The notes: generated from the sequence alone by a model not told the origin. A stretch of 20,000 nucleotides of DNA from Acidimicrobiia bacterium (GCA_029210695.1 JARGFH010000014.1:44109-64108); one strand, 5' to 3'; shown: positions 1,598 through 18,850, counted from the first letter of the stretch. A program made the numbers and translations.

Positions 1598-1606
1598 GGT
1601 CTTGTA

Positions 1607-2623
1607 TCAGCCGCCGCGCCCGGCCCCGACGGCAGCGAGCCCTGCACCGGCGGTGCCGGCGTTGGAGGAGCCGCCACCACTCGACGTGGCCGGGAGCTTG
1701 AAGTCCAGGCCGAAGACCTTCTGCCACAACTCAAGGCTGTGTTCAATCGACGTGTCGTCCTCATACGCGACCTTGGTATCGGCCGCGATGGACGAGATCT
1801 TCTTCCGGAATGCCTGGTAGGTGTCCTCTGTCCAGCGGTGGTCGAAGGTGATCGGGTTACCGTCGGGGTCGGTGGCACCTGAGGGATCGGCGATGGAGGG
1901 CTTGGTTGGGTTGGCCTGGAGCCATTCGTTCAAGTCGGTGATTAGGTGGAAGAAGGTGGTTGGCAGATCCTCGTAGTAGGACGGGTCTGCGATCTTGCTA
2001 GCTGCGTCGACTCGTTCGCCGAGCATCGCCGTGAGCAGGACGGACCGGGTGCGCCTGAAGCTATCGCGATGGTCGCGAAGGTACTTCAGCAGGCGGATGA
2101 CCCGCTTGAGGTGGCCGCCGGTGGTGTCGTTCTTCTCTTTCATCCACGCGGTGAAGCCGGCGGGGTCGGTGTCTTCCCACTCGTCGCCGTCACCGTTGAC
2201 GATGACTTGACGGCCATCGCTCAGCACGACGAAAGGTACAACATCGACGTGGTAGTCGCCGGCGTACACGACGCGTACGCATCGGCACTTGGGCGGCTTG
2301 ACCAAGTCCTTGTAGGTGCCGTTCCGGGCGAGTGCCGCGTGGACCACAGTGATGTACGTCTTGGGGCTATGGGCCCAGGCCTCCTGCTCGTCCATGACGA
2401 GCATGAAATCAGCGTCGAACTCCACACCGTCCGCCGGCTTGATGATCGTCCCGTGTGGCCACGAACCCTGCGGGTCGTAGTCGAGGACGATCGAGCCGAT
2501 CTCACTATCGGCTTGGAGAGCGTCGAAGATTGCGGGGACACTCACGTCCAGGTTGTCGATTCGCGTCTGGTTGATATTGACCGTATTGGTCATGAACGCG
2601 TTGAAGCTTGCAGTCATTCTCAT
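1607..2623 (-). CDS. cGAS/DncV-like nucleotidyltransferase (SMODS, CBASS CD-NTase)
   Basis: Pol-beta NTase motifs QGSWPHGT...EFDADF and HVDVVP, plus TDPAGFTAW and VIRLLKYLRD. ATGA overlap with the upstream SAVED gene. Gly-rich tail ending GRGG. Confidence 0.93.
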   Translation of the reverse strand: MRMTASFNAFMTNTVNINQTRIDNLDVSVPAIFDALQADSEIGSIVLDYDPQGSWPHGTIIKPADGVEFDADFMLVMDEQEAWAHSPKTYITVVHAALARNGTYKDLVKPPKCRCVRVVYAGDYHVDVVPFVVLSDGRQVIVNGDGDEWEDTDPAGFTAWMKEKNDTTGGHLKRVIRLLKYLRDHRDSFRRTRSVLLTAMLGERVDAASKIADPSYYEDLPTTFFHLITDLNEWLQANPTKPSIADPSGATDPDGNPITFDHRWTEDTYQAFRKKISSIAADTKVAYEDDTSIEHSLELWQKVFGLDFKLPATSSGGGSSNAGTAGAGLAAVGAGRGG

Positions 2624-3798
2624 TGTGCGCTGACCTCCAGTGCAGGGTGGTAGGAGCCGTCGTCGCGTCGGTCGTAGACGACGAGGCGGGGATGGATGCC
2701 CCAGCCGACGGAGCGGCCGAGGGTGACGCCGACCGAGACCGGTGCGGCTGGGAACACGTGGATGCGCCGGACGGTCTTGTCCGACTGCTCGAGTTGGCCG
2801 AGCATCTTGCGAACCGCTCGCTCAAACGAATCGCGCACACGACGGCTACATACCGAATCAGTATGTGGTGTGCCGTCCAACTCGACGAAATAGGTGGGAA
2901 GGCCAGCAGTCTCTGCCGGCAGCTCGGCGGGGTGGATCGTCCCTGAGGCATTGATGATTAGGACAGCGTCGGTGGCCGGACGGGGTCCGGGTGCGTGCGA
3001 CGGGTCCTCGCGCCGGGCCACGAACTCAGGGTCATCGTCGGCCGCTGCCGGCCAGATCCAGTTCTCCGTGGCGCGGTGTCGTTGGAACACGTCGACGGTG
3101 AGGGCGTCATCGATGCGCGAACCGAGGTAGACAAGCAGGGGGAAGCGGGCAATCGCGAATACGCTGAGATGCGGCACGATGCCCTTCTCGACGGCGGGCC
3201 GAAGGCGTTGAGCGATGACCTCGTCGATCCGGGAGGCTGCTGCTTTGTAGTAGCTATCGGCGGCGGTGAGTTCGCCGGAGATCTGGCGAAGGTCGATCTC
3301 GACGCCCCGGCGGTCGAAAGACAGAGCGAGTTCGGGAAACCGGTTCGAGGAGCGAAGTACTGCCTCCGTCGCAGCCTCCACGCCAAGGTCGACAGTTGCC
3401 CCGCGCACGTGCCCCTGCATGCGGAGCAGCACCGTACGTCTGCGACCAACGGTCTCGGTAGCCTCGAAGACCCGACGCTCGTGTTCCTCCTTCAACGTGC
3501 TGATCTGCTCCACGGTCAGTAGATCGAGTTGCGCACGCTTGTCGGCGTCGGGGTGATGGAGGCCGCAGAGCAGCAGCAGGTTGTCCGCCGCATTTCGCTG
3601 GTCGCCTGGAATCTGATGATCGCCTCGGGGGCCCGCAGCACTTGCTGCAACGTTGTGGGCGACCTCGCCGAGCAAGACCGGTCGCAGGGTCAGATCCGAC
3701 TCCAGCAGGTACGCATTGCAGAAAGCGCACCGTCCACCCGAGCGTACCCACACTCTTAGTCGTTCGTTCTCCGGAACCTTGCCTCGACGTCCAGCCAT
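2620..3798 (-). CDS. cap5: HNH endonuclease-SAVED CBASS effector (Cap5-like)
   Basis: N-terminal RSGGRCAFC...GEVAHNVA..GPRG...NLLLLCGLHH is an HNH with Zn ligands. C-terminal SAVED-like motifs SVFAIARFPLLVYLG, FQRHR..W.W and IHVFPAAPVS. Start set at ATG 3798, which follows GAGGTG. Confidence 0.9.
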   Translation of the reverse strand: MAGRRGKVPENERLRVWVRSGGRCAFCNAYLLESDLTLRPVLLGEVAHNVAASAAGPRGDHQIPGDQRNAADNLLLLCGLHHPDADKRAQLDLLTVEQISTLKEEHERRVFEATETVGRRRTVLLRMQGHVRGATVDLGVEAATEAVLRSSNRFPELALSFDRRGVEIDLRQISGELTAADSYYKAAASRIDEVIAQRLRPAVEKGIVPHLSVFAIARFPLLVYLGSRIDDALTVDVFQRHRATENWIWPAAADDDPEFVARREDPSHAPGPRPATDAVLIINASGTIHPAELPAETAGLPTYFVELDGTPHTDSVCSRRVRDSFERAVRKMLGQLEQSDKTVRRIHVFPAAPVSVGVTLGRSVGWGIHPRLVVYDRRDDGSYHPALEVSAQ

Positions 3799-4231
3799 CT
3801 GCTTCACCTCGCCAGTATGAATGCACGGTGTGACACTTCTCGCGACACACCGACTACGTGCGGCGCTCGCCACGAACCTTCGCCTGCCCGAGGCTCAGTG
3901 CGCTCGCCGACACGCAGCTTCTCCGCTCGGGGTCCCGGATCCTGAGGCATCACGCCGCCCGTACGGCTCACGCGCCGCCCGTTCATCTCCGCTTCTCTCC
4001 GGCGTCGGACCGCTTGCGCCGCCAACGACCTGACTTGGTCCGTGACCGTGGCTGCTTCCCGCCGCCCTGCTCTGGCACATGGGGGACCTTCCCCGCTCGT
4101 CGGTCTGGCATCTACTTCTCCTCAACTGTCACAAGATGGCCTCCTGCCGTCTCTTCTCACAGAATACTATACCATAGGGAGAGATGGACAGCGACTATGC
4201 TCAGAGGAGAGCGTTCCTCTATGGAGGTGTC
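3799..4231. promoter_or_regulatory. Divergent promoter region between the CBASS operon and the capH/capP-like regulators
   Basis: Non-coding gap between divergent starts, with an AT-richer patch (gaatactataccat, about 4162-4175) that contains -10-like hexamers. Operator not resolved. Confidence 0.55.
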
Positions 4232-4687
4232 ATGCGGGATTCGTTGGGTTCGAGGTTGCGGGCTCGGCGCACAGAGCGGGGTCTGAAACTGACTGATGTG
4301 GCGGACGCCACCGGGCTATCGATGCAGTACATCTCCAATCTGGAGCGCGACCGTGGGAACCCGACCCTCAAGGCGTTAGCTGCCATCGCCGGCGCGCTCG
4401 AGACGACAGTCGCGGCGCTGGTGGGGGACGACGTGGATGTCGAGGACGAAAGCGATGAGCTCGTTCTGGCCGCCCTTCCAACGTCGCTCATCACCTTCAG
4501 CCGGACGGACCGCTTCGAGTCTGTAGTCGAGCAGCTCGGGATAGCGCAGGGCGTCAGCCGTGAGGACATGCGGCGTCGGGTTCTCGTTGGGATGGCATCG
4601 GCGCCGCGTCGCAGTGCTGGTGAGCCAACGCGAGACGATTGGCAGCGGCTCCTCGACGCCTACCGGTTGATCCTCGACGAGGCGTGA
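4232..4687 (+). CDS. XRE/Cro-C1 HTH transcriptional regulator (CapH-like)
   Basis: LGSRLRARRTERGLKLTDVADATGLSMQYISNLERDRGNPTLKALAAIAGAL is a canonical XRE HTH. GGAGGT SD precedes ATG 4232. Divergent from CBASS and directly followed by a peptidase gene. Confidence 0.9.
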   Translation: MRDSLGSRLRARRTERGLKLTDVADATGLSMQYISNLERDRGNPTLKALAAIAGALETTVAALVGDDVDVEDESDELVLAALPTSLITFSRTDRFESVVEQLGIAQGVSREDMRRRVLVGMASAPRRSAGEPTRDDWQRLLDAYRLILDEA

Positions 4688-4688
4688 C

Positions 4689-5717
4689 ATGTCATCCCGT
4701 ACGCAGATCGATGCTGCGGATGCCGTGCTGCTCGAGCTTATCGACCCTGCGATCCTGAGCGATTTGGCGAGGGATCCCCGATCTGTCATCGAGGCGCGCT
4801 TTGGGCCCATAGGCATCCAGCCGCTTCCATCGGCTTCGATGACAAATGACGAATGCTCATGCGACGGCTACTACGAGACGCTCCTCAACCCGGCGAAACC
4901 CTGGATTCTGTACGACTCTCGCGTCTCGGCCGAACGTCGCTCCTTCACTCTCCTCCACGAGTTGGGCCACCATCTCATAGCCTCGCGAGTCCCGGAACTC
5001 CTCGATGTGATCGATGAGATAGCTGGTCCCCGCGGCGATCCAGCGGCCGTTGAGGAGGTGCTGTGCCACCGACTCGCTGGCAAGCTGCTCACGCCCGACA
5101 CTCTGCTCGATGAGGTGGTTGGCAGCGACGCCCCAAGGCCAGGGCATCTACTGGAACTCAAGGAGAAGGGTCACGCCTCGTGGGAGGCCGCTGCCGTTCG
5201 ACTCGCCGATCGGATCAGCGGTCCCGGTGCAGTCGTGTTGTTGCGAGAGCCCGGGCTCGTCTCATTCGCAGCTACGTCGACCGGCGCCAGGTTCGGGTGG
5301 CCGCGCAACAGCCGGCTTCGCCCCGGAGGCGCATTGAGTCGCGCATTCTCGGTCGACGCTCGGACCAAGGAAGATCGATACCGGTGGGGACTGCCTTACG
5401 AGGAGGAGCTCTTCTGCGACACGGTCAAGGTCCACGACGAACTCGTCGTTGCGGTTATGTCTCGGCATCGCAGTACGAGGGGTCTCAGCTTTCTCGAGGA
5501 GGTGGAGCCCGTTTGGAAGAGAAGGCTTGAGCTTTGTATCGCTTGCAACGGCGAGCGAATCGTCGGATGGTGCGACAAGTGCAAGGGGCGGTTCTGCCGT
5601 GATTGCGGCAGATGCGGATGCTATCGGCCAGCGGCCACGAATCGTCACTGCGAAGGGTGCGGCCTCATCAAACCCTTCCGACCCGGGTCGGGACTTTGCC
5701 GAGACTGTGAATCGTGA
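4689..5717 (+). CDS. ImmA/IrrE-family metallopeptidase (CapP-like) with Cys-rich C-terminal extension
   Basis: RRSFTLLHELGHHL (HExxH) and EEVLCHRLAGKLL, then an HTH-like ASWEAAAVRL segment, a putative GAF-like region, and a tail with 12 Cys. Starts 1 nt after the HTH gene stop. Confidence 0.88.
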   Translation: MSSRTQIDAADAVLLELIDPAILSDLARDPRSVIEARFGPIGIQPLPSASMTNDECSCDGYYETLLNPAKPWILYDSRVSAERRSFTLLHELGHHLIASRVPELLDVIDEIAGPRGDPAAVEEVLCHRLAGKLLTPDTLLDEVVGSDAPRPGHLLELKEKGHASWEAAAVRLADRISGPGAVVLLREPGLVSFAATSTGARFGWPRNSRLRPGGALSRAFSVDARTKEDRYRWGLPYEEELFCDTVKVHDELVVAVMSRHRSTRGLSFLEEVEPVWKRRLELCIACNGERIVGWCDKCKGRFCRDCGRCGCYRPAATNRHCEGCGLIKPFRPGSGLCRDCES

Positions 5718-5867
5718 CTGCCTATGAGTTCGAGGCTGAGGTCGGCTGGCCTGCCCCGGGGGTTCTGCTTCAGGAGCTCCTCGAGAGCGTGGTCAGCGTA
5801 CGCGAAGCCGTCAAGGCCTGGGCAGGCCAACCATCCCGCAGCGAATCACGCGGATGCTGTCAACCAC

Positions 5868-5881
5868 CTCAAGACTGAACC
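5868..5881 (+). repeat. 14-bp direct repeat CTCAAGACTGAACC, left copy (putative target site duplication)
   Basis: Identical to 12932-12945. Each copy directly abuts a terminal inverted repeat. Confidence 0.9.
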
Positions 5882-5915
5882 GGGAAGGGAGATAGAGGAA
5901 CGAAAAACCGGAATC
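5882..5915 (+). repeat. 34-bp left terminal inverted repeat
   Basis: GGGAAGGGAGATAGAGGAACGAAAAACCGGAATC matches the reverse complement of 12898-12931 at 32/34 positions. Confidence 0.92.
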
Positions 5916-5978
5916 GGGGAGCGATCTGTCCCCGCCCAGTGACGATAGCAATCCTCGGTCTACGTGCGTCGCTCAAAC

Positions 5979-8114
5979 CTACCTGCGACCGGGCGCTCGC
6001 AACTGTCGTAGTTCTGCAAGGCGTCCCGATGCTTCGAGAGCGTAGATGGCCCCTCGCGCATGGCGGGCATCACCCAGGAGCGACTCGGCGCGTTGAGTTA
6101 GCTCCCCGCCTTCAACAACGTCAAGGGGGTCAAGGAACACAAGGTGCGCTATCTCCCAGCGATCCTTCCCTGCACCGAATCTGTACAGGTGGCGTTGGTG
6201 GAACTGCCGTTCAAGCGCGGCGCGGTCCTTCTTGTACTTGAGGTGAGCGTAGAAGTTCAGGTCCCTTCCGTATCGGAGGTTGAACGCTGCACCCAGGAAC
6301 GGCCACCGATCCTTATAGAACGATCGTGATCCAAGGCCCAGCTCTTCTCTCGTCTCGCGGTACATAGTCGTCCGAAGGGAGCGACGGAATAGTCCTCTCC
6401 GCCACCAACGGAGATCCCCCCAATCTGCCGCGCCTCCGCTGCTGCAGCCGACCCCACCCCTAGCTGCCTGCACACGGTCGGAGCGTCGCTGGAGAACGAT
6501 GAAGCCGTCAGCTGTGGTCACTAGCGTCGACACCCCGACCATCATTGAGTAGTACGCCGCGGCGTCTTCGCCCGAGGGCAGGTCAACTTGACGGAGCGTC
6601 CACGCCGAACCCTCGAAGAACTCGCGCAGATATGGAAGCTGCCCTGGGACTTCGAGGTGAACGGACCCCTCGGCCAGTAGGTAGTCCTCGTACTTCACCT
6701 TGGCACACCGCATTCTCAGGCCCGCACGCGTCTTGACGCCCGACATCTGAGGTAAGTCTGCAAGCCGGACCTTCGCACCCCAGTTGAGGCCGGGTCCGTA
6801 GTAGCTCTTGCGCAGCTCGCGTCCGCGCCAGCGGGCATAAGCGTCCCAGCTAAAGGGTAGTACGTCGGATCGTTCCGAAGCTTGTGCAAGGTCTGGTTTC
6901 GGCGCCTTCCGAGCCAGGCTGCAATGGACGTCGAATTGAAGATCCTGCTCCGGGTGGATGAGGAACGAGATGGGCACATGGGCGTACGGCATTGACGCTT
7001 GGAGTACGGTCGGGTTCTTAGCTCGGCGGCGGTACTCGCTGGAAAGCTCCCGGTTGGTGCGATCGACCACCACGGTAGGCCCAAACCGAGGGTGGACGCC
7101 CGAGCGAACCACGCTCCACGCGTCCCGAATGCCTGTTCGGAGAAACTGGTACAAACCAAAGAGAATCCCTGTCGCGCCAGCCCCAGCAAGAAGACTCTCC
7201 GCCAACTGGAGCATGGTGCCTGAATCTCCCGTCGCGGGCGGGGTATGGCGGAGCAGAACGCTGAGACCAGACATGCTCAGCGATAGGGCGAGCAGGAAGA
7301 CAAGGCCCACGCCGATAAGATGTAGCCGAGCGCTGAGTCGCGATCGTGGCGAGAGCAGCGGCGCTGTCGTTTCGGATGGTGCGACGCTTCGTGTGGCGGT
7401 GGGTGCCGAATACATGCTTGCCCGTACCCAGTCCTCCGGTTCCGCAACCGACCTCGCATGGCGTACGTATTCGAGGATTCTCTCGACGCATTGCTTGCAG
7501 CGCGCGCCCTCATTCTCGTGGTCGACCGCGCATTCAGAAGTGTTGAGGAAGAGTCCGCCCCCGTAGTACGGGAACGACCTAGCTTCGGCCCGCACCTGGG
7601 ACTCAGTCAGATCGACGGCAGGGTGGCTCGCACGGCGCTCGCGAAACCTTTGCGCGGCGTCCTCTGCCGAGACGTAGCACTCAACCAGGAAGAGCTTCGC
7701 TCTGTGTTTCTGAGCGATGCCAACGATTCCCGAACGGTGATACCACGGGGCGTAGGTCGCGTCGACGATCACAGCGACCGCCCTCCCGCTGGCGAGCTCC
7801 ATGTCAGCAAGGCGATGCATCTGCCCATAGCTGAGATTGCGAACGCGTTTGCTGTGGTCCGAATCACTCAGAATGTCTCTTCGTATCTCATCCATCTCAA
7901 GGTGCGTTGCAGCCACATCGAGGCCCGCCTGGACCTGGCATGCGAGCGATGACTTCCCCGACAAGGAAGGACCAGAGAACACGATGACCCGCCGCCCGCC
8001 AGGAGCCACCCCCGATCCATCACCGGTCACCGAGGCACCGTCGCGGGGCATTTGACCTTGGCGTCGGCGTACGAGCGAGCGAGCGACGCCAGCTATCGCT
8101 CGCCATATTCTCAT
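5979..8114 (-). CDS. Fusion protein: P-loop (AAA_33-like) kinase, two TM helices, Nudix-like hydrolase
   Basis: VIVFSGPSLSGKS (Walker A), MDEIRR, VIVDATY and lid-like AAQRFRER. Hydrophobic LIGVGLVFLLALSLSMSGLSVLL and LLAGAGATGILFGLYQFL. Then GVSTLVTTADGFIVLQRRS and a Nudix box ending YRETREELGL. Start at ATG 8114 after GAGGT. Confidence 0.8.
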   Translation of the reverse strand: MRIWRAIAGVARSLVRRRQGQMPRDGASVTGDGSGVAPGGRRVIVFSGPSLSGKSSLACQVQAGLDVAATHLEMDEIRRDILSDSDHSKRVRNLSYGQMHRLADMELASGRAVAVIVDATYAPWYHRSGIVGIAQKHRAKLFLVECYVSAEDAAQRFRERRASHPAVDLTESQVRAEARSFPYYGGGLFLNTSECAVDHENEGARCKQCVERILEYVRHARSVAEPEDWVRASMYSAPTATRSVAPSETTAPLLSPRSRLSARLHLIGVGLVFLLALSLSMSGLSVLLRHTPPATGDSGTMLQLAESLLAGAGATGILFGLYQFLRTGIRDAWSVVRSGVHPRFGPTVVVDRTNRELSSEYRRRAKNPTVLQASMPYAHVPISFLIHPEQDLQFDVHCSLARKAPKPDLAQASERSDVLPFSWDAYARWRGRELRKSYYGPGLNWGAKVRLADLPQMSGVKTRAGLRMRCAKVKYEDYLLAEGSVHLEVPGQLPYLREFFEGSAWTLRQVDLPSGEDAAAYYSMMVGVSTLVTTADGFIVLQRRSDRVQAARGGVGCSSGGAADWGDLRWWRRGLFRRSLRTTMYRETREELGLGSRSFYKDRWPFLGAAFNLRYGRDLNFYAHLKYKKDRAALERQFHQRHLYRFGAGKDRWEIAHLVFLDPLDVVEGGELTQRAESLLGDARHARGAIYALEASGRLAELRQLRAPGRR

Positions 8115-8252
8115 TATGTACCTCAACACAAGGCCGACCTTACTTGTTGATGTTGTACCCCAGCCAACTCTCGTCCAAAGATCAGTCCATGGCGATCCTC
8201 AACGTCCTGTACCTGAGCGCGCGTGGTCGCGGAATGCCACGGTTCTCCCGAC

Positions 8253-8621
8253 TCACGGACGGGTGTAGTTGGCGTTGCAGGTGAACGACCTGCGCTGCCA
8301 CGGCGACGCCAAAGTCGAGCTGCTGACGAGGTTGATCTGCCCTTGCCGGTCGTCGAGTGCCCATTCGACGGCGACTTCGAATCTGCCCTCGTGGTCGAAG
8401 TCAGGGAACATCAGGTCTGCAGCACCACCCACGAGGACGGTTCTGCCTTCGACGTCGGCATGAGTACCGGCGATCCCGTCGCGGGAGGCGCGCCGCCGCG
8501 GGCCTGGGGCGATCCGAGCGCCGTGTGACGTCAGTGCCCAGTACGCAATGGTGGTTCGGCATCGCTGGCGGCTGCACTGGAATGGCAGCGGCGGCGTGGT
8601 ACGGAGCGGGTCGAGGAGCAC
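8253..8621 (-). CDS. Hypothetical protein or degraded gene
   Basis: 122-aa ORF whose frame stays open about 38 codons upstream without an obvious start. No recognisable motif. Confidence 0.3.
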   Translation of the reverse strand: MLLDPLRTTPPLPFQCSRQRCRTTIAYWALTSHGARIAPGPRRRASRDGIAGTHADVEGRTVLVGGAADLMFPDFDHEGRFEVAVEWALDDRQGQINLVSSSTLASPWQRRSFTCNANYTRP

Positions 8622-8750
8622 GTTGGGTTCTGGGTCGTCGATTAGCGCCGCCTCGGCGACGTCGTTGTTACGGAGCCATCGAATTACATCGTTGACATTT
8701 ACCGTCTTGCTCGCGACAGTAACCAGTAATCGACCCGGTTATCACAATGG

Positions 8751-9233
8751 ATGCCCGCCCGCAGTGCTGCGACTGCGGCATTTACGTGGCTCGTGGTCGC
8801 AGAAGGACTATGGCGCGACCTAGAGGGGCATCGTACTCGGCAGCCGGACCAAGTCGTTCTTCCGATCTGGGATAAATACAAGGCCAAGCGATTCGGGCCT
8901 AGCCTACCGTGGCCGGTGGAATCGGTAAGCGCCGCACAGATCGTTCTGAACGCTGCGGATCGAGACATCGTCGACGAGCCGATCCAAGCTGCCAACACCA
9001 ACCGCCACGGGTTCCTTCATGGCAATGTCGCAGGGATCATCCGCATCCACCATGCGGTGAAAGTGTTCACACTGGTCGATGCACTCGTGGATATGGCTGA
9101 GGAGTACGCGAGTGATCTGCCTGACGAGCGGCGGCTGGAACGGGCGCCGTGGGAAGATTCGCCCGGCAGCATTATCCGCACACCGGTTCGTTACGGACCA
9201 TTGCCCGGCATGTCCGCCTTGAACGACGAGTGA
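8751..9233 (+). CDS. HEPN-like protein, possibly an N-terminally truncated fragment
   Basis: NRHGFLHG fits the HEPN RxxxxH motif in a helical context (TWLVVAEGLWRD; AVKVFTLVDALVDMA). In-frame stop at 8727 and no clear SD. Confidence 0.55.
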   Translation: MPARSAATAAFTWLVVAEGLWRDLEGHRTRQPDQVVLPIWDKYKAKRFGPSLPWPVESVSAAQIVLNAADRDIVDEPIQAANTNRHGFLHGNVAGIIRIHHAVKVFTLVDALVDMAEEYASDLPDERRLERAPWEDSPGSIIRTPVRYGPLPGMSALNDE

Positions 9234-9313
9234 GCAACCTACGCGGCAAGGCAGGCCGCCCCCACTGGCGGGTCCGATTGGTCAGCTCTCTTAGTCGACC
9301 CTTTGCATCAATG

Positions 9314-10099
9314 TCACCGGGATTCTGAACTCGCCGCCCACCAGGTGAGGAGGGCGCGGCGAGCTATGTGCTCAAAGATGTGGAGATACATCGGGAGGTC
9401 TTCAGCCTTCCAGACGCTCTGACCGACAGCTGCGGCGAGACCCAAAGGTCGTTCCTCGGTGTTCGGATATCTGATCGGACCGTCAAGCAGCGGGCCAGGA
9501 AACGCCTTTCCGCCGTGCAGACTCTTGCTGCGGTATCCGTAGATCTGGCTCAGACCATGTCGCAGTTTGCTCCAATCGACCTGCATCGCCGGTTCTGGTC
9601 GGCTCTCCGGCGGAGGGGGTTTGAAAGCATCAAGGAAATCGAGGAACTTCCTTGTCGATCGAGTGACCTGGACAAGCTTCTCAGCCGCGTAGTCAACCAA
9701 TTCAGCGCCGCCAGCTTGCTGGAGGCGCTCGAAGAGGCCTTGGTCCCAAGCTTCCAGATGCTCCGCCGGGTCGGCCTGCCCCTGCCACCAATGATCAGCG
9801 GCAGTCTCGACAGCTGACACGAACTTGAGCCATGCGTACTCGGGGTCGTCTTCGGCAACCCATAGGCCTGCTTGATACGCCCGTGCCGATCGGATCAGCG
9901 CGACCGCCGTCGACAGATCGAGGTCCGGATACGAGCCGAGCAGGTCCGCAACATCATTGAGCTGATGGGTACCCAGAGCCGAGGGCACAGCAGGTCGGTG
10001 AGACGCGGGCGGTATATAGGGCTGAACGTGTTTGTGGGAACGCGGTCGGCCCATGGGATCACCGTCTGCGTCGAAAGCGCGTGGCGTCCCACCCCTCTG
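9314..10099 (-). pseudogene. 3' part of an ApeA-like HEPN-domain gene interrupted by an IS3-family element
   Basis: SARAYQAGLW..EDDPEYAWLKFVSAVE and IYGYRSKSLHGG (RxxxxH). The N-terminus of the listed ORF lies inside the IS and is spurious. Confidence 0.75.
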
Positions 10100-10169
10100 T
10101 GTCAACCTGGGGTGAGGCGGGTTGATAGACGGAAATATTGTGCTTTGAGGGCGGGGAGGGATGTTCCCG

Positions 10170-10625
10170 ATGAACACGGAAATGTTGCAGTCTGAGCAGC
10201 GACGCGGCGATGCTGGCGTCATGGAATCATCACATACCGATCCTGATCCTGAGGTTCCGGTGCGGGCCCGGCCGCCGCGGAGCTATTCGGCGAAGTACAA
10301 GGCCCGGATCCTTGCCGAGTATGAGGACCTGTCGAAGGGTGACAAGGGGGCGTTGTTGCGACGGGAGGGCCTGTACTCGTCGCTGATTTCGGAGTGGCGG
10401 AAACAACGTGACCGGGGAGCTCTCGAGGCGTTGTCGAAGTCGTCGGGTCGCCCACCGGCTGATCCGTTGGAGCGGGAGAACGTCCGGCTGGTCCGGGAGA
10501 ACCGGCGTCTCGAAACGGATTTGGATAAGGCTCGCAGGGTGATCGAGGTGCAGGGGAAACTCTCGGCGTTGTTGGAGCAGCTCGCCACCGGCAGCGCCAC
10601 CGAGACGAGGGGCGAGAAGCAATGA
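10170..10625 (+). CDS. IS3-family transposase OrfA (HTH plus coiled coil)
   Basis: [16 protein letters not shown]...[20 protein letters not shown], then [16 protein letters not shown]. Start uncertain (10161, 10170 or 10221). Confidence 0.85.
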
Positions 10626-11641
10626 TCGATGAGGCGATCGACGAGTTGGCGCCGGTGGTGGGGGTCACCGGGGCGTGTCTGGCGACGGGTCGGCCCCGTT
10701 CGACCCATTACCGCCGGCACCGGCAGAGCCCGCCACCGCCGAAACCCGAGCGGGTCCCGCAGCTCCAACCGCGGGCCCTTTCGGAGGTGGAACGCAAAGA
10801 GATACTGCGGGTGTTGCATGAACCCGACCATGTCGATGAGGCACCCGCAACGGTGTTCGCCAAGCTGCTCGACGAAGCAACCTATCTGGCGTCGGTATCG
10901 ACCATGTACCGGATTCTGCGGGCCGAAGGAGAGGTGGGTGACCGGCGCCGCCACGCCACCCACCCTGCCCACAAGAAACCTGAACTGATCGCTGTGGCAC
11001 CCAACGACGTGTGGAGTTGGGATATCACCAAACTGCTCGGCCCCCACAAGTGGAGCTACTACTACCTGTATGTGATCATCGATATCTACTCGCGGTATGT
11101 GCCCGGGTGGATGCTCGCCGACAAAGAGAACGGCCGGCTGGCCGAGCAGCTACTCGCCGAGACCACCGCCAAACAACACATCGAACGTGACCGGCTCACC
11201 ATCCACGCCGACCGCGGTTCACCAATGGTCGCCAAACCCGTAGCGCATCTACTCGCCGACCTCGGAGTCACCAAGAGCCATTCCCGGCCGCATGTCAGCA
11301 ACGACAACCCGTACTCGGAGAGCCAGTTCCGTACCCTCAAATATCGGCCCGAGTTCCCCGAACGCTTCGGCAGCATCCAAGACGCCCGCAGCTACTGCAA
11401 CTGGTTCTTCGGCTGGTACAACAACCAGCACCGCCACTCCGGTATCGGGTTCCACACCCCCGCCGACGTCCACTACGGCCGGGCCGAAGCCATACAGCAA
11501 CAACGAGCCCAGGTCCTCAACGCCGCCTACGCCGCCCACCCCGAACGATTCGTCCGGAAACCACCCCAACCACCGGCCCTACCCACCGCGGCCTGGATCA
11601 ACCCGCCACCCGACAGCGAGGACAACACAACGACACAATGA
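10622..11641 (+). CDS. IS3-family transposase OrfB (rve DDE core)
   Basis: [29 protein letters not shown] and [14 protein letters not shown] overlap with orfA. Confidence 0.93.
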
Positions 11642-11674
11642 AACCCCAACCAATCCGTCTCAAAAAGGTTGACA

Positions 11675-11948
11675 GGCACCGGTCGCTCGGCGAATGGTGC
11701 CAGCTGACGCGAAGCACGACCGCTGGAAGAGGGTCCCCGGGTCTATGAGGTTGGATTGGCACTGTATTGAGCAGCGAAAACGGCCCGAGTCCTCCGAGGA
11801 TCTCGCCGGTCACGTGAGCGTCCGTGTAAAGCGTGTACTCCTCAACGCCGTGAACTGGTTCGCTCGCACGAAAGGCACGCCAGTTCTCATACGCGGTCAG
11901 ATCTGAAGGGGGCTGCGGCATCTCGCCATCTTCGAACGTTTGGTTCAC
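11675..11948 (-). pseudogene. 5' part of the HEPN-domain gene interrupted by the IS3-family element
   Basis: GTG start with GGGGAGG SD. The protein-like sequence YENWRAF...EEYTLYTDAHVTGE..GLGPFSLLNTVP...AVVLRVSWH runs into the IS end. Same strand as the 3' part. Confidence 0.7.
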
Positions 11949-12084
11949 GGCCTGCCTCCCCTGCTAATCCGAGGCTCGTCGTCCATGTCATATCGAGTCA
12001 AGCGTATCCGTCGTTGAAGAGCTGCCACAGCACGAACGAGCCTCTGAGACGTGTGTCGTGTCAGTCTTGATCCCGCCTGCTGGC

Positions 12085-12726
12085 TCAGTCGCTGGCCAAC
12101 TCGTCGAGTATGAGAAGGCCGAGCGCCACGAATCGGTCGACCGCGAGGTGTCGAGCGTGGCTCGGATCGACGGCTTCCTCCCTTCCACCAACACGAACGG
12201 TGTATGCGGCTGATTCACCGATCATCACACTCAGCGGCACGTGGCGGTGGACGAGAGCGTTGCGAACATCGATGAGTCGATCGACGTGTGCCGACCCATG
12301 CGTCTCGACAACCCACCGCTGCTGAGCGGGCGTCAATGAGTCGAGCACCGCTCGTGTGGTTGCTACCTCGCGGAGGTCAGGCTCTCGTTGCGTCCGTCCT
12401 GCAAGTGCTGCCAATGCAGCTGCACAGAGGTCGATTGAGGCGGCTGCAGACACGACCGTGAGCTGGAACCCACTGAGATACACGAACTGAGCGTCGTCCT
12501 CGAACGCGACGCTCAGCGAGGGTGCCTGGTCGTACATGCGGGCTCCCACCCCCGAGTAGCGAAGGTGAAAGCCCGCCTGAACGATCCGGTGTCCCGCCTG
12601 AGTCCCGGAGTACCCGTGCTTCGCAGACAGATTCGCCAGAAGCCCTGCTGCGAACCGGTGAGTCCGAGGTCCTTCCTCGATGCGGTGACCGCGGAACTCG
12701 TCGGGGATGTCATCAACTGAGAGCAT
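12085..12726 (-). CDS. HEPN-like (Cthe_2314-like) protein
   Basis: AGGAGGT SD. Helical AAASIDLCAAAL and RLIDVRNALVHR (RxxxxH). Confidence 0.7.
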   Translation of the reverse strand: MLSVDDIPDEFRGHRIEEGPRTHRFAAGLLANLSAKHGYSGTQAGHRIVQAGFHLRYSGVGARMYDQAPSLSVAFEDDAQFVYLSGFQLTVVSAAASIDLCAAALAALAGRTQREPDLREVATTRAVLDSLTPAQQRWVVETHGSAHVDRLIDVRNALVHRHVPLSVMIGESAAYTVRVGGREEAVDPSHARHLAVDRFVALGLLILDELASD

Positions 12727-12833
12727 GGATGCACCTCCTGGGCGGCGATTGCGAACAAGCGATCCCTCGGAGGCATTGCGCCTCGGTCTGTCGCTTGGGG
12801 GAGTTCGGCGGTTCGAGCATTGGGCACCAGAGT

Positions 12834-12860
12834 ACGGGTCGGGTGTGACGGGTCGGGTGT
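12834..12860. repeat. Tandem 13-bp repeat ACGGGTCGGGTGT x2
   Basis: Perfect copies at 12834-12846 and 12848-12860, between the right TIR and the 12726 gene start. Confidence 0.7.
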
Positions 12861-12897
12861 AACCCCGTTCGCAGGGGTCGGCGACCGTGGCGCGCAG

Positions 12898-12931
12898 GAT
12901 TCCGGTTTTTCGTTCCTATGTCTCCCTTCCC
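12898..12931 (-). repeat. 34-bp right terminal inverted repeat
   Basis: Reverse complement GGGAAGGGAGACATAGGAACGAAAAACCGGAATC, 2 mismatches versus 5882-5915. Confidence 0.92.
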
Positions 12932-12945
12932 CTCAAGACTGAACC
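12932..12945 (+). repeat. 14-bp direct repeat CTCAAGACTGAACC, right copy
   Basis: Identical to 5868-5881. Confidence 0.9.
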
Positions 12946-13084
12946 AGGCTTTCGCCCGTCGCTCCGCTTGGTCGATGCCTATCGTTGCGTGTCGTACTTC
13001 CGGCGCTTGGCCCGCCTTACTTGCCAAGGGGCTGGCGGCGACGGGGCTCGGGCCTGACGTGTGGTGAGCATTGCTCCATCGCGC

Positions 13085-13115
13085 TGTCCGTGGACTGTCC
13101 GTCAAGTGTCCGTCA
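13085..13115 (+). repeat. TGTCCGT x3 with 11-bp period, candidate integrase arm-type sites
   Basis: Copies at 13085, 13096 and 13107, about 105 bp upstream of the tRNA fragment. Confidence 0.55.
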
Positions 13116-13218
13116 GAGGACCGAAAACGACCAAAGACTACGAGAGGTGACAACAGACGAAATCCCTTGCCATGTGGGGGTTTTCGCCCAAATCGCCTGT
13201 GCTGCCAAGACCCTTGTT

Positions 13219-13266
13219 CTGCCTTCACACGGCAGAGGCCACTGGTTCGATCCCAGTAGCGCCCAC
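13219..13266 (+). other. 3' fragment of tRNA-Val(CAC), att site of an integrative element
   Basis: Anticodon arm CTGCC-TTCACAC-GGCAG, T arm ACTGG-TTCGATC-CCAGT, and acceptor 3' strand AGCGCCCA. No D arm or 5' acceptor strand upstream. Confidence 0.88.
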
Positions 13267-13269
13267 TCG

Positions 13270-13294
13270 GAAACCGTTGCGCCGCAACGGTTTC
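13270..13294 (+). terminator. Hairpin downstream of the tRNA fragment
   Basis: GAAACCGTTGC-GCC-GCAACGGTTTC, an 11-bp perfect stem with only a weak U-tract. Confidence 0.6.
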
Positions 13295-13459
13295 TGGCGT
13301 TTCTGAGAGCGCGAAATCCAACGGTGGCTCCGCTAGGACGCGCATGGGACGCGTTTTGTCTCGAGCTACTCCTCAACTCTGGCCGCCGCGACCGCATCGT
13401 GACGACGTCCGGATGCGCCTCGTGGACGGCCTCTCGTGCTCCGTCACATGGACGGTGGC

Positions 13460-16400
13460 ATGATCGAGTTCTCGATACTCGGACCGCTGCTGGTACTGGC
13501 CGATTCTGTTGAGGTCTCGATTACGTCGCCACTTCAACGGGCGTTACTGGTTCGGCTGCTTCTCGAGCCGGGCAAGGTGGTATCAGTGGATCGCCTCGTT
13601 GAGGATCTCTGGGGTGACGCCCAGCCGGCCAATCCTGCAAATGCGCTGCGCTATCACGTGTGGCAGCTTCGGGACGCGCTCGAGCCCGACCGGCCGCGAC
13701 GGTCCGAGGGCGGCTATGTCCGCACCAGGGCGCCGGGGTACTACCTCGATCAGGAGCAAGCATCGATTGACGCCGTCGAGTTTGAGCGACTGGCGGTTGC
13801 GGGGCGTGCGATGGTGGAGGACGAGCCTGAACGCGCTGCGGAGCTCCTCGAGGACGCACTCGGATTGTGGCGGGGGGAGGCACTCGCGGACGTTGCCGAC
13901 TGCGAGTTCGCCCACGATGTGCGCCTGAGGTTGGAGGAACGCCGGTTATTGGCGGTTGAGGACCGGGTCGCTGCCAGATTGGCGTGCGGTGCTGCAACGG
14001 ATCTGGTCCCGGAGTTGGAGCAGCTTGCGGGCAAGCATCCGTGGCGTGAGCGCCTTCGCGGGCAGTTGATGGTGGCGCTATATCGGTCGGGGCGTCAGGC
14101 CGATGCCCTGGCGGCGTTCCGTGACGCCCGCAGGTTGTTTGGTGAGGAGTTGGGTATCGAGCCATCTCCGGAGCTCGCGGCGATCGAGGAACGGGTGCTC
14201 TTGCACGACACCGAGCTGGCTGCGCCACTCGGGACAGGCCGGCCGGGGTCCAACCTCCCGGAGCCGTTGACGTCGTTCATCGGACGGGACAGTGAACTCA
14301 CTCAGCTTCAACGGCTGCTCGGAGAACGACGTCTCGTCACCCTGGTGGGCTCGCCGGGAGTAGGGAAGACTCGCTTGGGTATCCAAGCTGCAAGGCGCAT
14401 GACGCACGGAGAACGGCATGTTGCGACGTGGATCGACCTCGTACCTATCCGCAGCAGAGATGACCTCATCCAAGCTATCGCTGACGCGCTGGAGCTCTCA
14501 CGTCCGGCCGCCCAAGCAGGCGGGGATGCAACACCCATGACGGAGGTCTCGGTTCTCGAATCGCTTCGTCGGCGACCCAGACTGTTGGTCCTGGATAACT
14601 GTGAGCACGTCGTCGATCTCGTTCGCGACGTGGCTGGGGCCTTGCTGGCCGCTTCGTCCGGGACGCGGATCCTCGCCACCAGTCGTCGACCACTTAACGA
14701 GGCGGCCGAGGTGATCTTCGAGGTAACACCCCTGCACGTGATTGATCCGGTCGACTTGGGAGACGACGGTTGGCGGCGCCTGCTGGCCACAGAGTCGGGC
14801 GCCTTGTTCATGGAACGCGCCTCGGATGCCGGCGCCCGCTTCACCAAGACGCGGGCATCGGCGGCTCAGATCGCCGAACTCTGCCAACGACTCGATGGCT
14901 TGCCTTTGGCGCTGGAGTTGGCAGCCACTCGCGCCCGGTCGATTGGTCCTGCCGATCTCCTCAGTCATCTCGGCGAACGTTTCGAGCTTCTCAACGGATC
15001 ACCCGCTGATCCATCAGGCAAGGGGACGCTGTGGAGCGCCCTCGAGTGGAGTTATGACCTCCTCGAAGCCGACGAGGCGACGGCGCTCTGTTGGCTATCG
15101 GTCTTCGTTGGAGCGTTCGATCTGGAAGCAGGGACTGCGTTGATAGGTGCTGCCGGGGACACGCCGGCGTCTCGGTACAGCCTGGTCTCACAACTGGTCG
15201 ACCACTCCCTGCTGGTGGCCGAACCAGCCGAGGGTGGGAAGCGTCGCTTCCGCTTGCTCGATTCGGTCCGCGACTTCGCCCTCGAGAAAGTCAAGCAGCG
15301 CGGCGAGACATCCGCCGCAGAATCAGCACACACCAGATATGTCGCTCGTCTCGCGGAGCAAGCTTGGGGAGCTCGCGCCGATCGAGAACTTCGAGAGGAG
15401 CTCCACCAGCGGCTCGATTCGGTCAGGTTCGACGTGAGAGCCGTCATTGACCGCCTACTCGCTTCCGGAGACGCCTGCCGTGCGATCGGTGTGGCCGGGG
15501 CCCTTGGTGAGTACTGGCGCGCGAGACGTTCATACGGAGATGCGATTGCCATATGCCGCGCCATCGGCGAAGACTGCCTCGGGGGCGACGTCCGTCTCGT
15601 TGCCCGCTTCTTGAACGGATGGGCTGAAGCTGAAGCGGTGATGATGCAGCCGCAGAAAGCCCAAGACCTTTGGAGGCGGGCCTACCCCCTGGCCGAGTCG
15701 GCCGGGGAGTGGTCCCTTGCTGCCGCTGCGCTCGTCGGAACGACGATGTGGCCGGGCCTCCACAGCCCGTGGGAACCGCGATTCGATGGAGTGTGGATGC
15801 GTGCTGTGGACTGCTATCGCCGGGCTGATGACGTCCTGGGAGAGGCCCGGGCGTACAACGAACGCGGCTTCAGAGAATTGGTAGCCGGCGACTTCGACCA
15901 AGCGTCGACCCACCTCGAGAGCGCACGTGCGCTCTTCGAGCAGGCCGAGGATGACGATGGAGTCCTAGAAGCGTTGGGGGATCTTGCGATGACCGCTCGG
16001 AACGCTGGCGACCTCGCAACCGCGCGCGCCACCGTTGAGCGGGGATTGGCGGTCATCACTGATCGGCCGGACGACGCTCGCAGACCGCGCCTACTCGTGG
16101 AATCAGCAGAGATCGCAATGGAAGAGGGCAAGCCCGACGCTGCCGTGAACCACTTGTTGCTGGCCCTGGCCATTGAGGACGAGTGCGCACCTGGAACGTT
16201 CTTCGCCAACACGCTTCGCTGTCTGCTGGGCTGGGCGCTGAGGGCATGCGGTCGCCACCGAGATGCGCTCGACCACATGACCTCAGCGATCCGGTTCTGC
16301 ATCCGCTCGCCGTGGGCCGACCCCGACAAGTCGGGTCACGCTGCATGGCTACTCGAGTCGGTCGCCGGCCTCTGCGCCGAAGCGTTCGCCCCGGCCCTCG

Positions 16401-16624: not shown

Positions 16625-16650
16625 CACCGCCCACTCGCTTTACGATTCGG

Positions 16651-16679
16651 GCCAGATAGCCGCCAGATAGCGGCCAGAT
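16651..16679 (+). promoter_or_regulatory. GCCAGAT x3 direct repeats with 11-bp period, SARP-type binding site
   Basis: Copies at 16651, 16662 and 16673, between the SARP gene and the next start codon. Confidence 0.75.
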
Positions 16680-16701
16680 GCCTCCACCGCACGGTGGAGG
16701 C

Positions 16702-17352
16702 ATGAAGAGAATCATCGCCTTCCTCATCACAGCGGCTCTCCTCACCCCGGTTGGGGCGCAACCGGCCGCATCGAAAGTCACCGATCCAGCGCTTGCACTG
16801 ACACTCACGCCATACCTGACCGAAGCTAGCCACGCATCCGCACTGGAGTTCGAGACAGTACCCAAGGAGCCGGTTCATAGCCCCGTCGACCCAGAAGCCG
16901 CTGCGCTGATGACGTGGGCGCGGACGAGATTCGAAGCCGCCGGCCTGACACTGCCCGACGTCACACTCTTCGTGCACGAGAGCCGCGACTCGTGCGACGG
17001 CAACGTCGGGCTCTTCAAAGGCTCCGACGCTGGCGGCGAGGTTCACCTCTGCACCGAAGACATGAACCTCGTCAAGCGCAGGACGCTGCTCCATGAACTA
17101 GGCCACGCATGGACCCTGCAGCACCTCTCAGGCGAAGACATCTCGTCCTTCCTGGCGTTGCGCGGTCTCGAGCACTGGAGCGAACCCGCACCGTGGTATC
17201 ACCGAGGCATTGAGCACGCCGCCGAGATCATGGCATGGGGTTTGTACGACACAGAACTTCGCGTGGTCACGATCGAGCCCAGCGACCCAGCAAGCCTGAG
17301 GATCGCTTTCCGCTTCCTGACCGGGGCTGATCCCATCTGCGGCGAGAATTGA
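16702..17352 (+). CDS. Secreted HExxH zincin-like protein
   Basis: Signal peptide MKRIIAFLITAALLTPVGAQPAA, TLLHELGHAW, and a downstream GIEHAAE acidic ligand candidate. GGAGG lies just before the ATG. Confidence 0.8.
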   Translation: MKRIIAFLITAALLTPVGAQPAASKVTDPALALTLTPYLTEASHASALEFETVPKEPVHSPVDPEAAALMTWARTRFEAAGLTLPDVTLFVHESRDSCDGNVGLFKGSDAGGEVHLCTEDMNLVKRRTLLHELGHAWTLQHLSGEDISSFLALRGLEHWSEPAPWYHRGIEHAAEIMAWGLYDTELRVVTIEPSDPASLRIAFRFLTGADPICGEN

Positions 17353-18831: not shown

Positions 18832-18850
18832 CGCGAAATCATGCCGGGGC

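Follow-up and report, generated by a model that had tools for sequence, protein, structure and literature searches.

A 7-kb bacterial element with casposon-type ends, probably a family-3-like casposon derivative that has lost cas1 and polB

We analyzed a 20,000-nucleotide stretch of DNA from an Acidimicrobiia bacterium (hereafter, the window) and found that the 7,050-bp element at positions 5882-12931 very probably derives from a bacterial casposon of the family-3-like type, with both cas1 and polB lost. These are the two genes that define the casposon, a self-synthesizing transposon, as described by Krupovic 2014 (PMC4046053). The casposon origin is suggested by relatives that have similar ends and a 14-bp duplication, encode Cas1 and PolB, and share one small core gene with the window element. 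Judging from these sequence comparisons, the insertion would have been made by a bacterial casposase of the Cas1 family, similar to those of family 3. The family 3 label, when applied to Cas1 of the type encoded by relative G039 (see below), expresses a likeness in ends, duplication, and domain layout, and should be read as family-3-like.

The element is bounded by a left terminal inverted repeat at 5882..5915 (34 nt, plus strand), with the casposon-type tip GGGAAGGGAGATAG, and a right one at 12898..12931 (34 nt, minus strand) that differs from it at two positions. These arms are complementary at 32/34 positions (94%) and form the longest inverted pair in the whole window; their match stops at 34 nt inward and does not extend outward into the flanking 14-mer. 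Directly abutting the arms are two perfect copies of a 14-bp direct repeat, CTCAAGACTGAACC, at 5868..5881 and 12932..12945, which we interpret as the target-site duplication. This 14-mer has two exact matches in the 3.91-Mb assembly, both flanking the element, and one more at one mismatch; by our own arithmetic, two fixed positions would agree at 14/14 by chance with a probability of about 4^-14. The GGG tip, together with the CC that closes the repeat, allows a reading of the duplication as 12-14 bp, 14 bp being the parsimonious length and in line with the family. On the other strand, CTCAAGACTGAACC ends in TTGAG, which corresponds to four of the five positions of the edge motif TTGAC found in 17/22 family duplications (our own count). 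The window ends also contain the motif GGAACGAAAA. Thus, two features by which casposons are recognized, terminal inverted repeats of casposon type and a target duplication of about 14-15 bp, are present, while two others, a casposase and a family-B DNA polymerase encoded inside the element, are absent. No PF01867 match was found among the 23 window ORFs scanned, no PolB Pfam match was found in the window ORFs, and tblastn searches of the window with the G039 Cas1 and with PolB were both empty.

The closest relatives were found in other genomes. The first is a 13.7-kb element (G039:C19) in a host of the same order and another family. Its ends are 35 nt long, 97% complementary, and identical to the window ends at 30/34 positions, and the 14-bp repeat on its flanks, CCCGCTGACTTTCC, differs from that of the window. 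Its products include a 500-aa Cas1 (PF01867, 5e-36; TIGR00287, 9e-32; PDB matches include 4n06 and 6opm) and a 1043-aa protein grouping with family-B polymerases; the latter has no Pfam match of its own and was assigned by clustering and motifs. No Cas2 was found in G039. The second is another Cas1-less element, located at 5866-11603 of G322:C128 and carrying the 14-bp repeat GGAAACTCGGTCAA on both flanks. Its polB is reduced to the C-terminal third (60% identical, E 1e-107, covering 629-995 of 998 profile positions), its cargo comprises AIPR and DUF4145 genes, and another end stands in tandem after it. A tRNA-Trp gene lies 46 nt downstream of this element, and the G039 element is placed identically; the target of the window element differs from this tRNA-Trp upstream site. 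Shared ends and internal sequence thus connect the window element to autonomous elements, as G039 and G473 both carry cas1 and polB. The differing 14-mers at the sites of the relatives indicate a target duplication and no recombination core. The first-pass annotation had described a bounded mobile element lacking its own enzyme and had given the same 34-bp ends and 14-bp repeats, all of which held; it had allowed that the 14-mer might be a fixed companion of the ends, which the relatives contradict. Of the three candidates that it named, the casposon proved to be the answer, reached along the lines of its own suggested check, in which further end pairs, the lengths of their duplications, and a shared gene led to Cas1-solo and PolB. 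Its suggestion of an undescribed transposase gives way to a Cas1-family casposase, an enzyme family identifiable from the relatives.

The association of such ends with Cas1 and PolB extends to a wider family. Relatives of the G039 Cas1 are encoded at 452 loci in genome_contigs, 80 of which were kept for analysis, and in 22/80 we located end pairs flanked by a perfect repeat. The PolB cluster was present in all 22 Cas1 loci with end pairs, and a CRISPR-like array was absent from 78/80 loci. With the tip fixed at GGG, 22 end pairs were obtained in 21 Cas1+PolB loci, from phyla other than that of the window; the duplication was 14 bp in 19 pairs and 13, 15, and 16 bp once each. Eighteen ends, including that of the window, align without gaps, with G1-3, G10, and A13 invariant and an A-run near positions 22-26. 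PF03175 was matched by 4/5 PolB cluster members tested (two above the curated cut-off), and weak PDB profile matches of the cluster were to family-B polymerases in 5/5 cases. The alignment has the invariant columns DxE, NxxFD, Yx3D, DxxSxY, KxxxNxxxYG, DTD, and KRY, which we take to correspond to PolB motifs. Both the PF03175 test and the motif alignment included PolB from L133 and from L146.

Similar ends are reported in the supplement of PMC4046053 for AceAut-C1 (GGGATAGTAG..., 15-bp repeat), NitAL212-C1 (GGGGTATG..., 14-bp repeat), and MetMaz-C1 (GGGATATAGG..., 14-bp repeat). The ends of AceAut-C1 (GGGATAG...) and NitAL212-C1, both of family 3, have GGG tips and an A-run about 20 nt in, like the window ends, and the AceAut-C1 repeat has GTCAA near its edge. 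Family 3 casposons as presented there (Krupovic et al. 2014, PMC4046053) further resemble the window element in their 14-15-bp duplication, intergenic insertion, and variable cargo with nucleases, kinases, and nested IS elements. They are 14-20 kb long with cas1 and polB, whereas the window element is 7 kb long and has neither. In addition, the family 3 PolBs were grouped in that article with those of RNA-primed family 2, whereas the PolBs of the window relatives match the protein-primed PF03175. The Streptomyces Toil-like (tectivirus-like) proviruses, formerly family 3 casposons, encode Cas1 (Yutin et al. 2018, PMC5894146); as described in that source, they share with the autonomous relatives of the window element an actinobacterial host and the combination of Cas1 with a protein-primed-type PolB. 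Unlike these proviruses, the four autonomous relatives whose full length was scanned (G039, L133, L139, and L146) have no capsid or packaging ATPase Pfam match, though divergent capsids could escape such a search, and the window element has no Cas1, PolB, capsid, or packaging ATPase gene.

Inside the window element, we distinguish four or five cargo genes of defense-like character (one kinase fusion, two candidates for HEPN-like proteins, and one gene of unknown function) and, in addition to these, the retained small core gene. The latter (8253..8738, minus strand; ~150-160 aa, start codon uncertain) is the only window gene common to the autonomous relatives, and the only one found when their proteins were used in tblastn on the window (E<=1e-4). 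It is 44% identical over 150 aa to a 188-aa gene of G039 (L080:6247-6813; E 2e-39), and its homologue lies between polB and cas1 in both G039 and G473:C15. It matched no Pfam, NCBIfam, or PADLOC family. The 716-aa cargo gene (5979..8129, minus strand) occupies the slot of cas1 in G039, in the same orientation and with a gap of 124 nt vs 100 nt; a Cas1 derivative was ruled out (hhalign probability 0.4%). Its product has an N-terminal P-loop kinase domain, followed by a hydrophobic central region and a C-terminal part that is Nudix-like, and one homologue at E<=0.001 (39% identity; 8,000 candidates scored from 5.8 billion proteins). The kinase assignment is solid (PF13671 AAA_33, 7.6e-15); the Nudix-like part is suggested by the motif RETREELGL, read from the translation, and by one Atlas lead cluster with NUDIX in 15% of members, a weak language-model lead.

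A 160-aa ORF of unknown function (8751..9233, plus strand, from the ORF list) gave no match in family searches, nor did the gene part at 9314..10099 (minus strand). The latter belongs to an ORF spanning 9314-10282, stop to stop, with an R-x4-H motif (RSKSLH, read from the translation) that is possibly HEPN-like. It may be the 3' part of a cargo gene interrupted by an IS3-family element, the candidate 5' part being 11675..11948 (minus strand, in ORF 11598-11948). One of six joins tried across the IS3 yields a continuous 356-aa frame, and we infer one split gene, a continuity that hinges on the exact IS ends. The remaining cargo gene (12085..12726, minus strand) encodes a 213-aa HEPN-like protein with the R-x4-H motif RNALVH, also read from the translation. 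It matched a "Cthe-2314-like HEPN" cluster in the Atlas by features (0.94, a weak language-model lead), and in one Atlas cluster 12% of the members have PF18730; Pfam and PADLOC searches with it gave no match. No PADLOC family was matched by the cargo as a whole, so that, of the functional labels proposed earlier for the cargo, the kinase domain stands, and the Nudix and HEPN assignments go no further than motifs and weak leads. The nested IS3 itself (10100..11674, plus strand; rve and rve_3) comprises orfA (10161-10625, plus strand) and orfB (10622-11641, plus strand; rve, NF033516 8e-50). It has its own ends, TGTCAACC...GGTTGACA, unrelated to the outer ones, as the first-pass annotation had stated, and no clear duplication; contig C49 holds a copy with 73% identity to it. 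A family scan of the ORFs found no other transposase or recombinase inside the element.

The insertion would be explained if a Cas1-family casposase had bound the two GGG-tipped inverted ends and joined the 3' ends of the element to two target strands 14 bp apart, with gap repair then producing the 14-bp direct repeat; the IS3 would have inserted later. The capacity of casposon ends to move cargo is known from artificial mini-casposons, in which 15-37 bp from the casposon ends enclose a resistance gene (Beguin et al. 2016, PMC5137440), and which purified casposase integrates with 13-15-bp duplications (Hickman & Dyda 2015, via PMC5137440). Like the window element, these hold cargo between short ends and have no cas1; as presented in that article, they were built in the laboratory from archaeal family 2 ends, whereas the window element is natural, bacterial, and multigene, and its mobility putative. 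TIMEs, TIME-COMPs, and mobile insertion cassettes, as described in PMC4133298, PMC13367494, and PMC4337579, follow the same concept, with passengers between ends and the enzyme elsewhere.

Whether the window element traveled as a cargo-only unit, with a casposase acting in trans, or was gutted after landing is almost evenly balanced, and we lean slightly toward the former. The alternative, to which we give a little less than an even chance, is that a complete casposon landed alone and later lost cas1 and polB in place, with no mobilization in trans; it opposes only the cargo-only movement and not the casposon identity. Such gutting is seen in G322, where a PolB stub is left at the usual tRNA-Trp site, and decay is common in the family, polB being split into 2-5 ORFs in 7/22 Cas1 elements. 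In the Methanosarcina casposons described by Krupovic et al. 2016 (PMC4779613), one target is reused and a duplication is shared by neighbors, as in G322, and there are likewise inactivated copies and casposon-derived end remnants; the decayed forms described there are broken polB copies and solo ends, whereas the window element is a cargo-carrying unit that keeps two intact ends but neither core gene. Also in line with decay in place, the IS3 is already inside the window element, its ends differ at 2/34 positions, and it is present as a single copy in a genome with no partner enzyme. Indeed, no third copy of the end sequence was found in the assembly at up to nine substitutions, nor any other copy of the element in six same-genus genomes, nor any match to the end pattern in genome_contigs. 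The search for an empty site was likewise negative: 6/6 same-genus genomes lack the left flank, and no sequencing run was listed. The element thus shows neither of these signs of its own mobility. A cognate enzyme in the same cell was not found either: the genome contains no casposase (no PF01867; empty search with the G039 casposase) and no casposon-type PolB (profile of 15 casposon PolBs), although it is 97.85% complete in 181 contigs and an unassembled casposase copy is possible. Because no casposase was found in the genome, the element would now be immobile unless one arrives. Against gutting in place, remnants of cas1 and polB are undetectable in the window by the tblastn and hhalign comparisons given above, and the cas1 slot holds the intact 716-aa ORF in matching orientation and spacing. 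Moreover, the small gene is retained between the two lost genes, and two separate clean replacements would therefore be needed.

A derivative of the Tn3 family (TIME- or mobile insertion cassette-like), moved by a Tn3-type TnpA with an aberrantly long duplication, is largely refuted, and we consider it very improbable. It was raised by the inner 18 nt of the window end, GGAACGAAAAACCGGAAT, which recurs unchanged as the inner portion of canonical 38-bp Tn3-type ends in 9/56 metagenome matches, one of which (L014) adjoins a DUF4158 Tn3 TnpA N-terminal domain (1e-56); the genome also contains a TnpA fragment. However, none of the 56 matches carries the window tip, and the closest end relatives change the 18-mer (two changes in G039, two or more in G322). 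The distance between tip and shared 18-mer is 15 nt vs 17, and the terminal TAAG is missing, so that the ends are not of the Tn3 form (~38 bp, GGGG tip to inner TAAG). Tn3 family elements typically duplicate 5 bp of target, vs 14 bp in the window, and the 5 bp adjoining the two window ends on the outside differ from each other (GAACC vs CTCAA). Finally, a family scan found no TnpA in or near the element and no DDE_Tnp_Tn3 or DUF4158 in the window; the closest relatives, judged over the full end, go with Cas1 and PolB instead. The resemblance to a Tn3 inverted repeat, noted earlier, is therefore best seen as coincidence. Some Tn3-type ends share the 18-nt identity, but the Tn3-derived non-autonomous elements differ from the window element in enzyme family, duplication length, tip spacing, and terminal motif.

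Equally improbable is some other enzyme, either a long-duplication DDE transposase (IS1202 family, IS4-like) or a tyrosine or serine recombinase with a 14-bp core: IS1202-family elements do make long target duplications, their target site duplication is discussed in the literature, and the locus looks like an integrative hot spot, with a tRNA-Val(CAC) fragment and a tyrosine integrase nearby, but the window ends match casposon ends, the 14-mer bears no relation to the tRNA fragment and is different at each relative's site, no recombinase lies inside, and the only rve enzyme is that of the IS3, whose ends at 10100 and 11674 do not match the outer ones.

The putative casposon derivative lies immediately downstream of CapH/CapP, which regulate a type II CBASS operon. 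A tRNA-Val(CAC) 3' fragment is located at 13219-13266 and has five further sites in the assembly, two of them inside intact tRNA-Val genes, and the tyrosine integrase is encoded at 17445-18893. The Tn3 TnpA fragment (99 positions) of this genome is located on contig C34.

An element lacking its own transposase, with 34-bp inverted ends and a 14-bp target duplication, had been described in the window by the first-pass annotation, and this structural description proved exact. The 14-bp direct repeat CTCAAGACTGAACC occupies 5868-5881 and 12932-12945, and directly inside its two copies are inverted arms of 34 nt (5882-5915 and 12898-12931; 32/34 matching), the longest inverted pair of the window, whose match is limited by a GGG tip outward and extends 34 nt inward. 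Tip to tip, the element measures 7,050 bp (7,078 bp including both repeats). By our arithmetic, two fixed positions would agree at 14/14 bases with a chance of about 4^-14, and the whole 3.91-Mb assembly contains exactly two copies of the 14-mer. No third copy of the end sequence was detected in the assembly with up to nine substitutions allowed, none of six same-genus genomes carried these ends, and a pattern for the whole end (GGGAAGGGN7GGAACGAAAAACC) gave 0 matches in genome_contigs. When a plasmid collection was searched, IS3 pieces were the sole matches to the whole element, and the 34-nt end gave one match, at chance level. Rfam and ARAGORN found no matches over the window, and in GC profile the element did not stand out from its flanks.

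Other genomes contain relatives of the whole end. A class-wide scan of 401 genomes with the inner 19-mer (≤2 mismatches) returned one match in the full tip context, on contig C19 of the related genome G039. The 35-nt ends there (751-785 and 14434-14468; 97% complementary) are identical to the window ends at 30/34 positions and enclose 13.7 kb flanked by a 14-bp repeat, CCCGCTGACTTTCC. An order-wide scan of 401 genomes with a degenerate 32-mer (≤3 mismatches; 0 matches for the reversed-pattern control) found ends in six genomes, including G039 and the window's own genome. On contig C128 of another related genome, G322, an element at 5866-11603 bears GGAAACTCGGTCAA on both flanks; it lacks Cas1, retains only the last third of polB and carries AIPR and DUF4145 genes. 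Since the G039 and G322 repeats both differ from that of the window, the 14-bp repeat is a family property whose sequence depends on the site, and the possibility, raised in the first-pass annotation, that the 14-mer is a fixed accompaniment of the end does not hold.

Both of these insertions, which come from two different genera, precede tRNA-Trp by exactly 46 nt (14469-14606 in the extracted G039 locus; 5729-5865 in that of G322), within a conserved tRNA-Trp/nusG/L11/L1 region, and their two target 14-mers are homologous, which indicates site-specific targeting in this branch. The G322 locus is arranged in tandem (5852-11651), as the Cas1-less element shares a 14-bp repeat with a second element, whose left end is at 11618; neither a right end for the latter nor a third repeat copy was found before the contig ends. 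In another genome (G661, contig C342), a short Cas1-like stretch at 5421-5636 (36% identity across 77 aa) overlaps a family-type end at 5599 and is situated just outside it; the arrangement may reflect an insertion into an older casposon or beside one.

The G039 element encodes a Cas1 homolog of 500 aa (PF01867, 5e-36; TIGR00287, 9e-32; PDB matches 4n06 and 6opm), and no Cas2 was found in this genome (98% complete, 20 contigs). Among the 8,000 candidates scored, more than 3,000 were related to this Cas1 at E ≤ 1e-10, the 120 best ones being mostly ~500-550 aa in length, and an alignment of 24 sequences showed CxxC...CxxC to be invariant and the C-terminal tail to be conserved. A Cas1 profile scan of species-representative genomes yielded 452 confirmed loci in Acidobacteriota, Actinomycetota, Chloroflexota, Eremiobacterota, and other phyla, of which 80 were kept for end analysis; the 500-aa Cas1 family has a zinc-ribbon/HTH tail. 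Inverted ends that enclose cas1 and are bordered by a perfect repeat were detected by script in 22/80 loci, the remaining 58 including cut contigs and cases missed by the strict rule. With the tip fixed at GGG, 22 end pairs were obtained in 21 loci, and the duplication was 14 bp long in 19 pairs and 13, 15, or 16 bp in one pair each.

Clustering of the ORFs of the bounded elements led to three core families: Cas1, a large protein of ~1000-1170 aa (22/22 elements, plus G039 and a stub in G322), and a protein of ~190 aa (21/22). The large protein is, by its sequence features, a family-B polymerase (PolB): PF03175 matched four of the five members tested (two above the cut-off), weak PDB profile matches were to family-B polymerases in 5/5, and the invariant columns correspond to motifs Exo I-III, Pol A, Pol B, Pol C, and KxY. 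Neither the 1043-aa nor the 652-aa protein of G039 gave a useful match in PDB sequence searches. The polB gene is split into two to five ORFs in 7/22 bounded elements. No CRISPR-like array was detected in 78/80 Cas1 loci, and no capsid or packaging gene was detected by Pfam in the four elements scanned. On these predicted gene contents, the elements encoding Cas1 and PolB are casposons by the published definition.

Published bacterial casposons of family 3 resemble them in ends and repeats: the AceAut-C1 end begins with GGGATAGTAG and has a 15-bp repeat, and that of NitAL212-C1 begins with GGGGTATG and has a 14-bp repeat (PMC4046053). The match of the PolBs to the protein-primed Pfam model is odd beside the 2014 description of family 3, and the pairing of such a polymerase with Cas1 recalls the Cas1-bearing Toil-like proviruses of Streptomyces (PMC5894146). 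In a gap-free alignment of 18 ends that included the window's, G1-3, G10, and A13 were invariant. A literature search for 14-bp duplications in prokaryotic transposons returned casposon work only. Through its Cas1-linked relatives the orphan element was traced to the casposase family, in place of the unusual or undescribed transposase that the first-pass annotation suggested as the mover; both the enzyme family and the kind of element are already known.

A second tie to casposons is a small gene on the minus strand of the window (8253-8738), whose product shares 44% identity over 150 aa (E 2e-39) with that of a 188-aa gene in the G039 casposon. On contig C15 of a further related genome (G473), this gene is located between polB and cas1, and it is thus a core gene of the Acidimicrobiia branch. 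The cas1 slot, on the same strand, is occupied in the window by a gene for a 716-aa kinase protein. Comparison with the G039 proteins detected no trace of cas1 or polB in the window, and neither gene was found elsewhere in the genome.

By analogy with studied casposases, the enzyme would join the 3' ends of both termini to the target strands at a fixed spacing, and repair would then yield the target duplication. A purified casposase integrates a resistance gene with only 15-37 bp of casposon ends and produces 13-15-bp duplications (PMC5137440), so that a cargo-only unit with intact ends would in principle be a competent substrate. One edge of the duplication is TTGAC, or its complement GTCAA, in 17/22 family duplications, and the corresponding edge in the window is TTGAG.

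How the window element came to lack cas1 and polB has two readings. We lean slightly toward its having travelled as a cargo-only unit. That a complete casposon landed and then lost both genes in place has a somewhat less than even chance: the element is single-copy, with neither an empty site nor a partner enzyme found, and the G322 element is a clear case of decay, yet the replacements flanking the retained core gene are clean on both sides, no cas1 or polB stubs are left, and the insertion site differs from the usual one of the relatives.

The label of defence-like cargo was borne out for one domain and remains plausible for the rest. The 716-aa protein (minus strand) has an AAA_33 P-loop kinase domain and a single homolog, of 39% identity, among the candidates scored; a remodelled Cas1 was considered for this protein and rejected by comparison with Cas1. 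The other labels draw on the R-x4-H motifs RNALVH and RSKSLH and a Nudix-box-like RETREELGL read in the cargo translations and on weak Atlas leads to HEPN and NUDIX, and PADLOC matched none of the cargo genes, so the defence assignment is kept at plausible. Besides the small core gene, the element carries a 213-aa gene and a gene running into a nested IS3-family element, both on the minus strand, and a 160-aa ORF on the plus strand. The nested IS3 (orfA and orfB, plus strand) has its own ends at 10100 and 11674, with perfect 8-bp tips (TGTCAACC), no clear target duplication, and 73% identity to a copy on contig C49. It probably splits a minus-strand cargo gene, a reading kept tentative because in silico removal restored a long frame with only one of six end choices. 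Defence-type cargo is also present in the G039 casposon (847-4509), as a Mrr_cat-STAND NTPase fusion and a protein of the PADLOC candidate PDC-S31; other members of the Cas1+PolB family carry a KAP NTPase, proteases, response regulators, and a serine recombinase.

The window is the final 20 kb of a 64-kb contig, and a complete-looking type II CBASS operon (2-5717) lies to the left of the element. It comprises a Cap2-like E1/E2 gene cut by the window start (2-1597), a CD-NTase (1607-2623), a SAVED nuclease effector (2620-3873), and the divergently placed CapH-like HTH (4184-4687) and CapP-like M78 peptidase (4689-5717) regulators, the last separated from the element by 150 nt. To the right are a 48-nt 3' fragment of tRNA-Val(CAC) (13219-13266), a BTAD-STAND regulator, a tyrosine integrase (17445-18893), and, at the contig end, an IS110-type transposase. 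The left flank is absent from 6/6 same-genus genomes, in which matches to the right flank are confined to the tRNA fragment and one short stretch; the region is a variable island. The empty site proposed as a check was accordingly not found there, and when it was rebuilt in silico no gene was clearly restored across the junction. The tRNA-Val(CAC) 3' part occurs at five other sites of the genome (C171:8945-8992, C121:31333-31380, C121:10369-10414, C10:33-77, and C141:16984-17023); two of the six copies lie within intact tRNA-Val genes and the others are fragments, probably att remnants of tRNA-Val-integrating elements, for which the tyrosine integrase is a candidate enzyme.

CRISPR adaptation machinery is thought to descend from casposons, which until now have been regarded as rare curiosities complete in themselves. 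With 452 loci, the related Cas1+PolB family is large, and its tip sequence and duplication length vary very little; natural units with casposon ends and cargo only were found in two genomes, with defence-type genes in both. We tentatively propose, as a possibility that we consider less probable than its negation, that cargo-only derivatives, retaining no more than the Cas1-recognised ends and sometimes a small core gene, form a natural second tier among bacterial casposons; they would be moved by casposases in trans, duplicate 14 bp at promoter-like (TTGAC-type) sites, and shuttle defence genes (HEPN-like, AIPR, and kinase fusions) next to other defence systems. Mobility of such units would mean that Cas1-type integrases naturally transfer cassettes of foreign genes, beyond their own genome or CRISPR spacers, and under the second-tier reading casposons would be active carriers in the assembly of defence islands, in marine Acidimicrobiia and elsewhere. 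In the openly accessible literature searched, casposons are described in tandem or broken form, as solo ends, and as laboratory mini-casposons, but a natural Cas1-less casposon that carries cargo was not found. Of note, an Acidobacteriaceae MAG (4015-18863 of its extracted locus) harbors a casposon at ~4254-18625, with its own 14-bp duplication, inside a second, GGGG-tipped pair of inverted ends that GTCAAACCCGGGGA flanks as a separate 14-bp duplication; this outer unit, only ~460 bp long once the casposon is subtracted, looks like a miniature casposon-end element.

Against a Tn3 origin, the window tip lies 15 nt from the inner 18-mer rather than 17, TAAG is missing, and the duplication is not 5 bp; this origin was dropped once the relatives of the whole end turned out to be Cas1-linked. 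A metagenome scan with this 18-mer had returned 56 loci, nine of which contain it as the inner portion of a canonical Tn3-type end (GGG/GGGG tip, 17 nt, 18-mer, AAG), and one of these nine ends adjoins a DUF4158 Tn3 transposase domain. The identity of the inner 18 nt of these 38-bp ends (loci L014, L021, L022, L023, L025, L046, L050, L058, and L062) with the inner part of the window end is probably due to chance. The window's own genome has an isolated Tn3-family transposase fragment (C34:939-1235; 99/389 profile positions) on a 3.2-kb contig that additionally bears an IS3-like piece. In L025 and L058, pairs of Tn3-type ends lie ~200-320 bp apart and look like miniature Tn3-derived elements.
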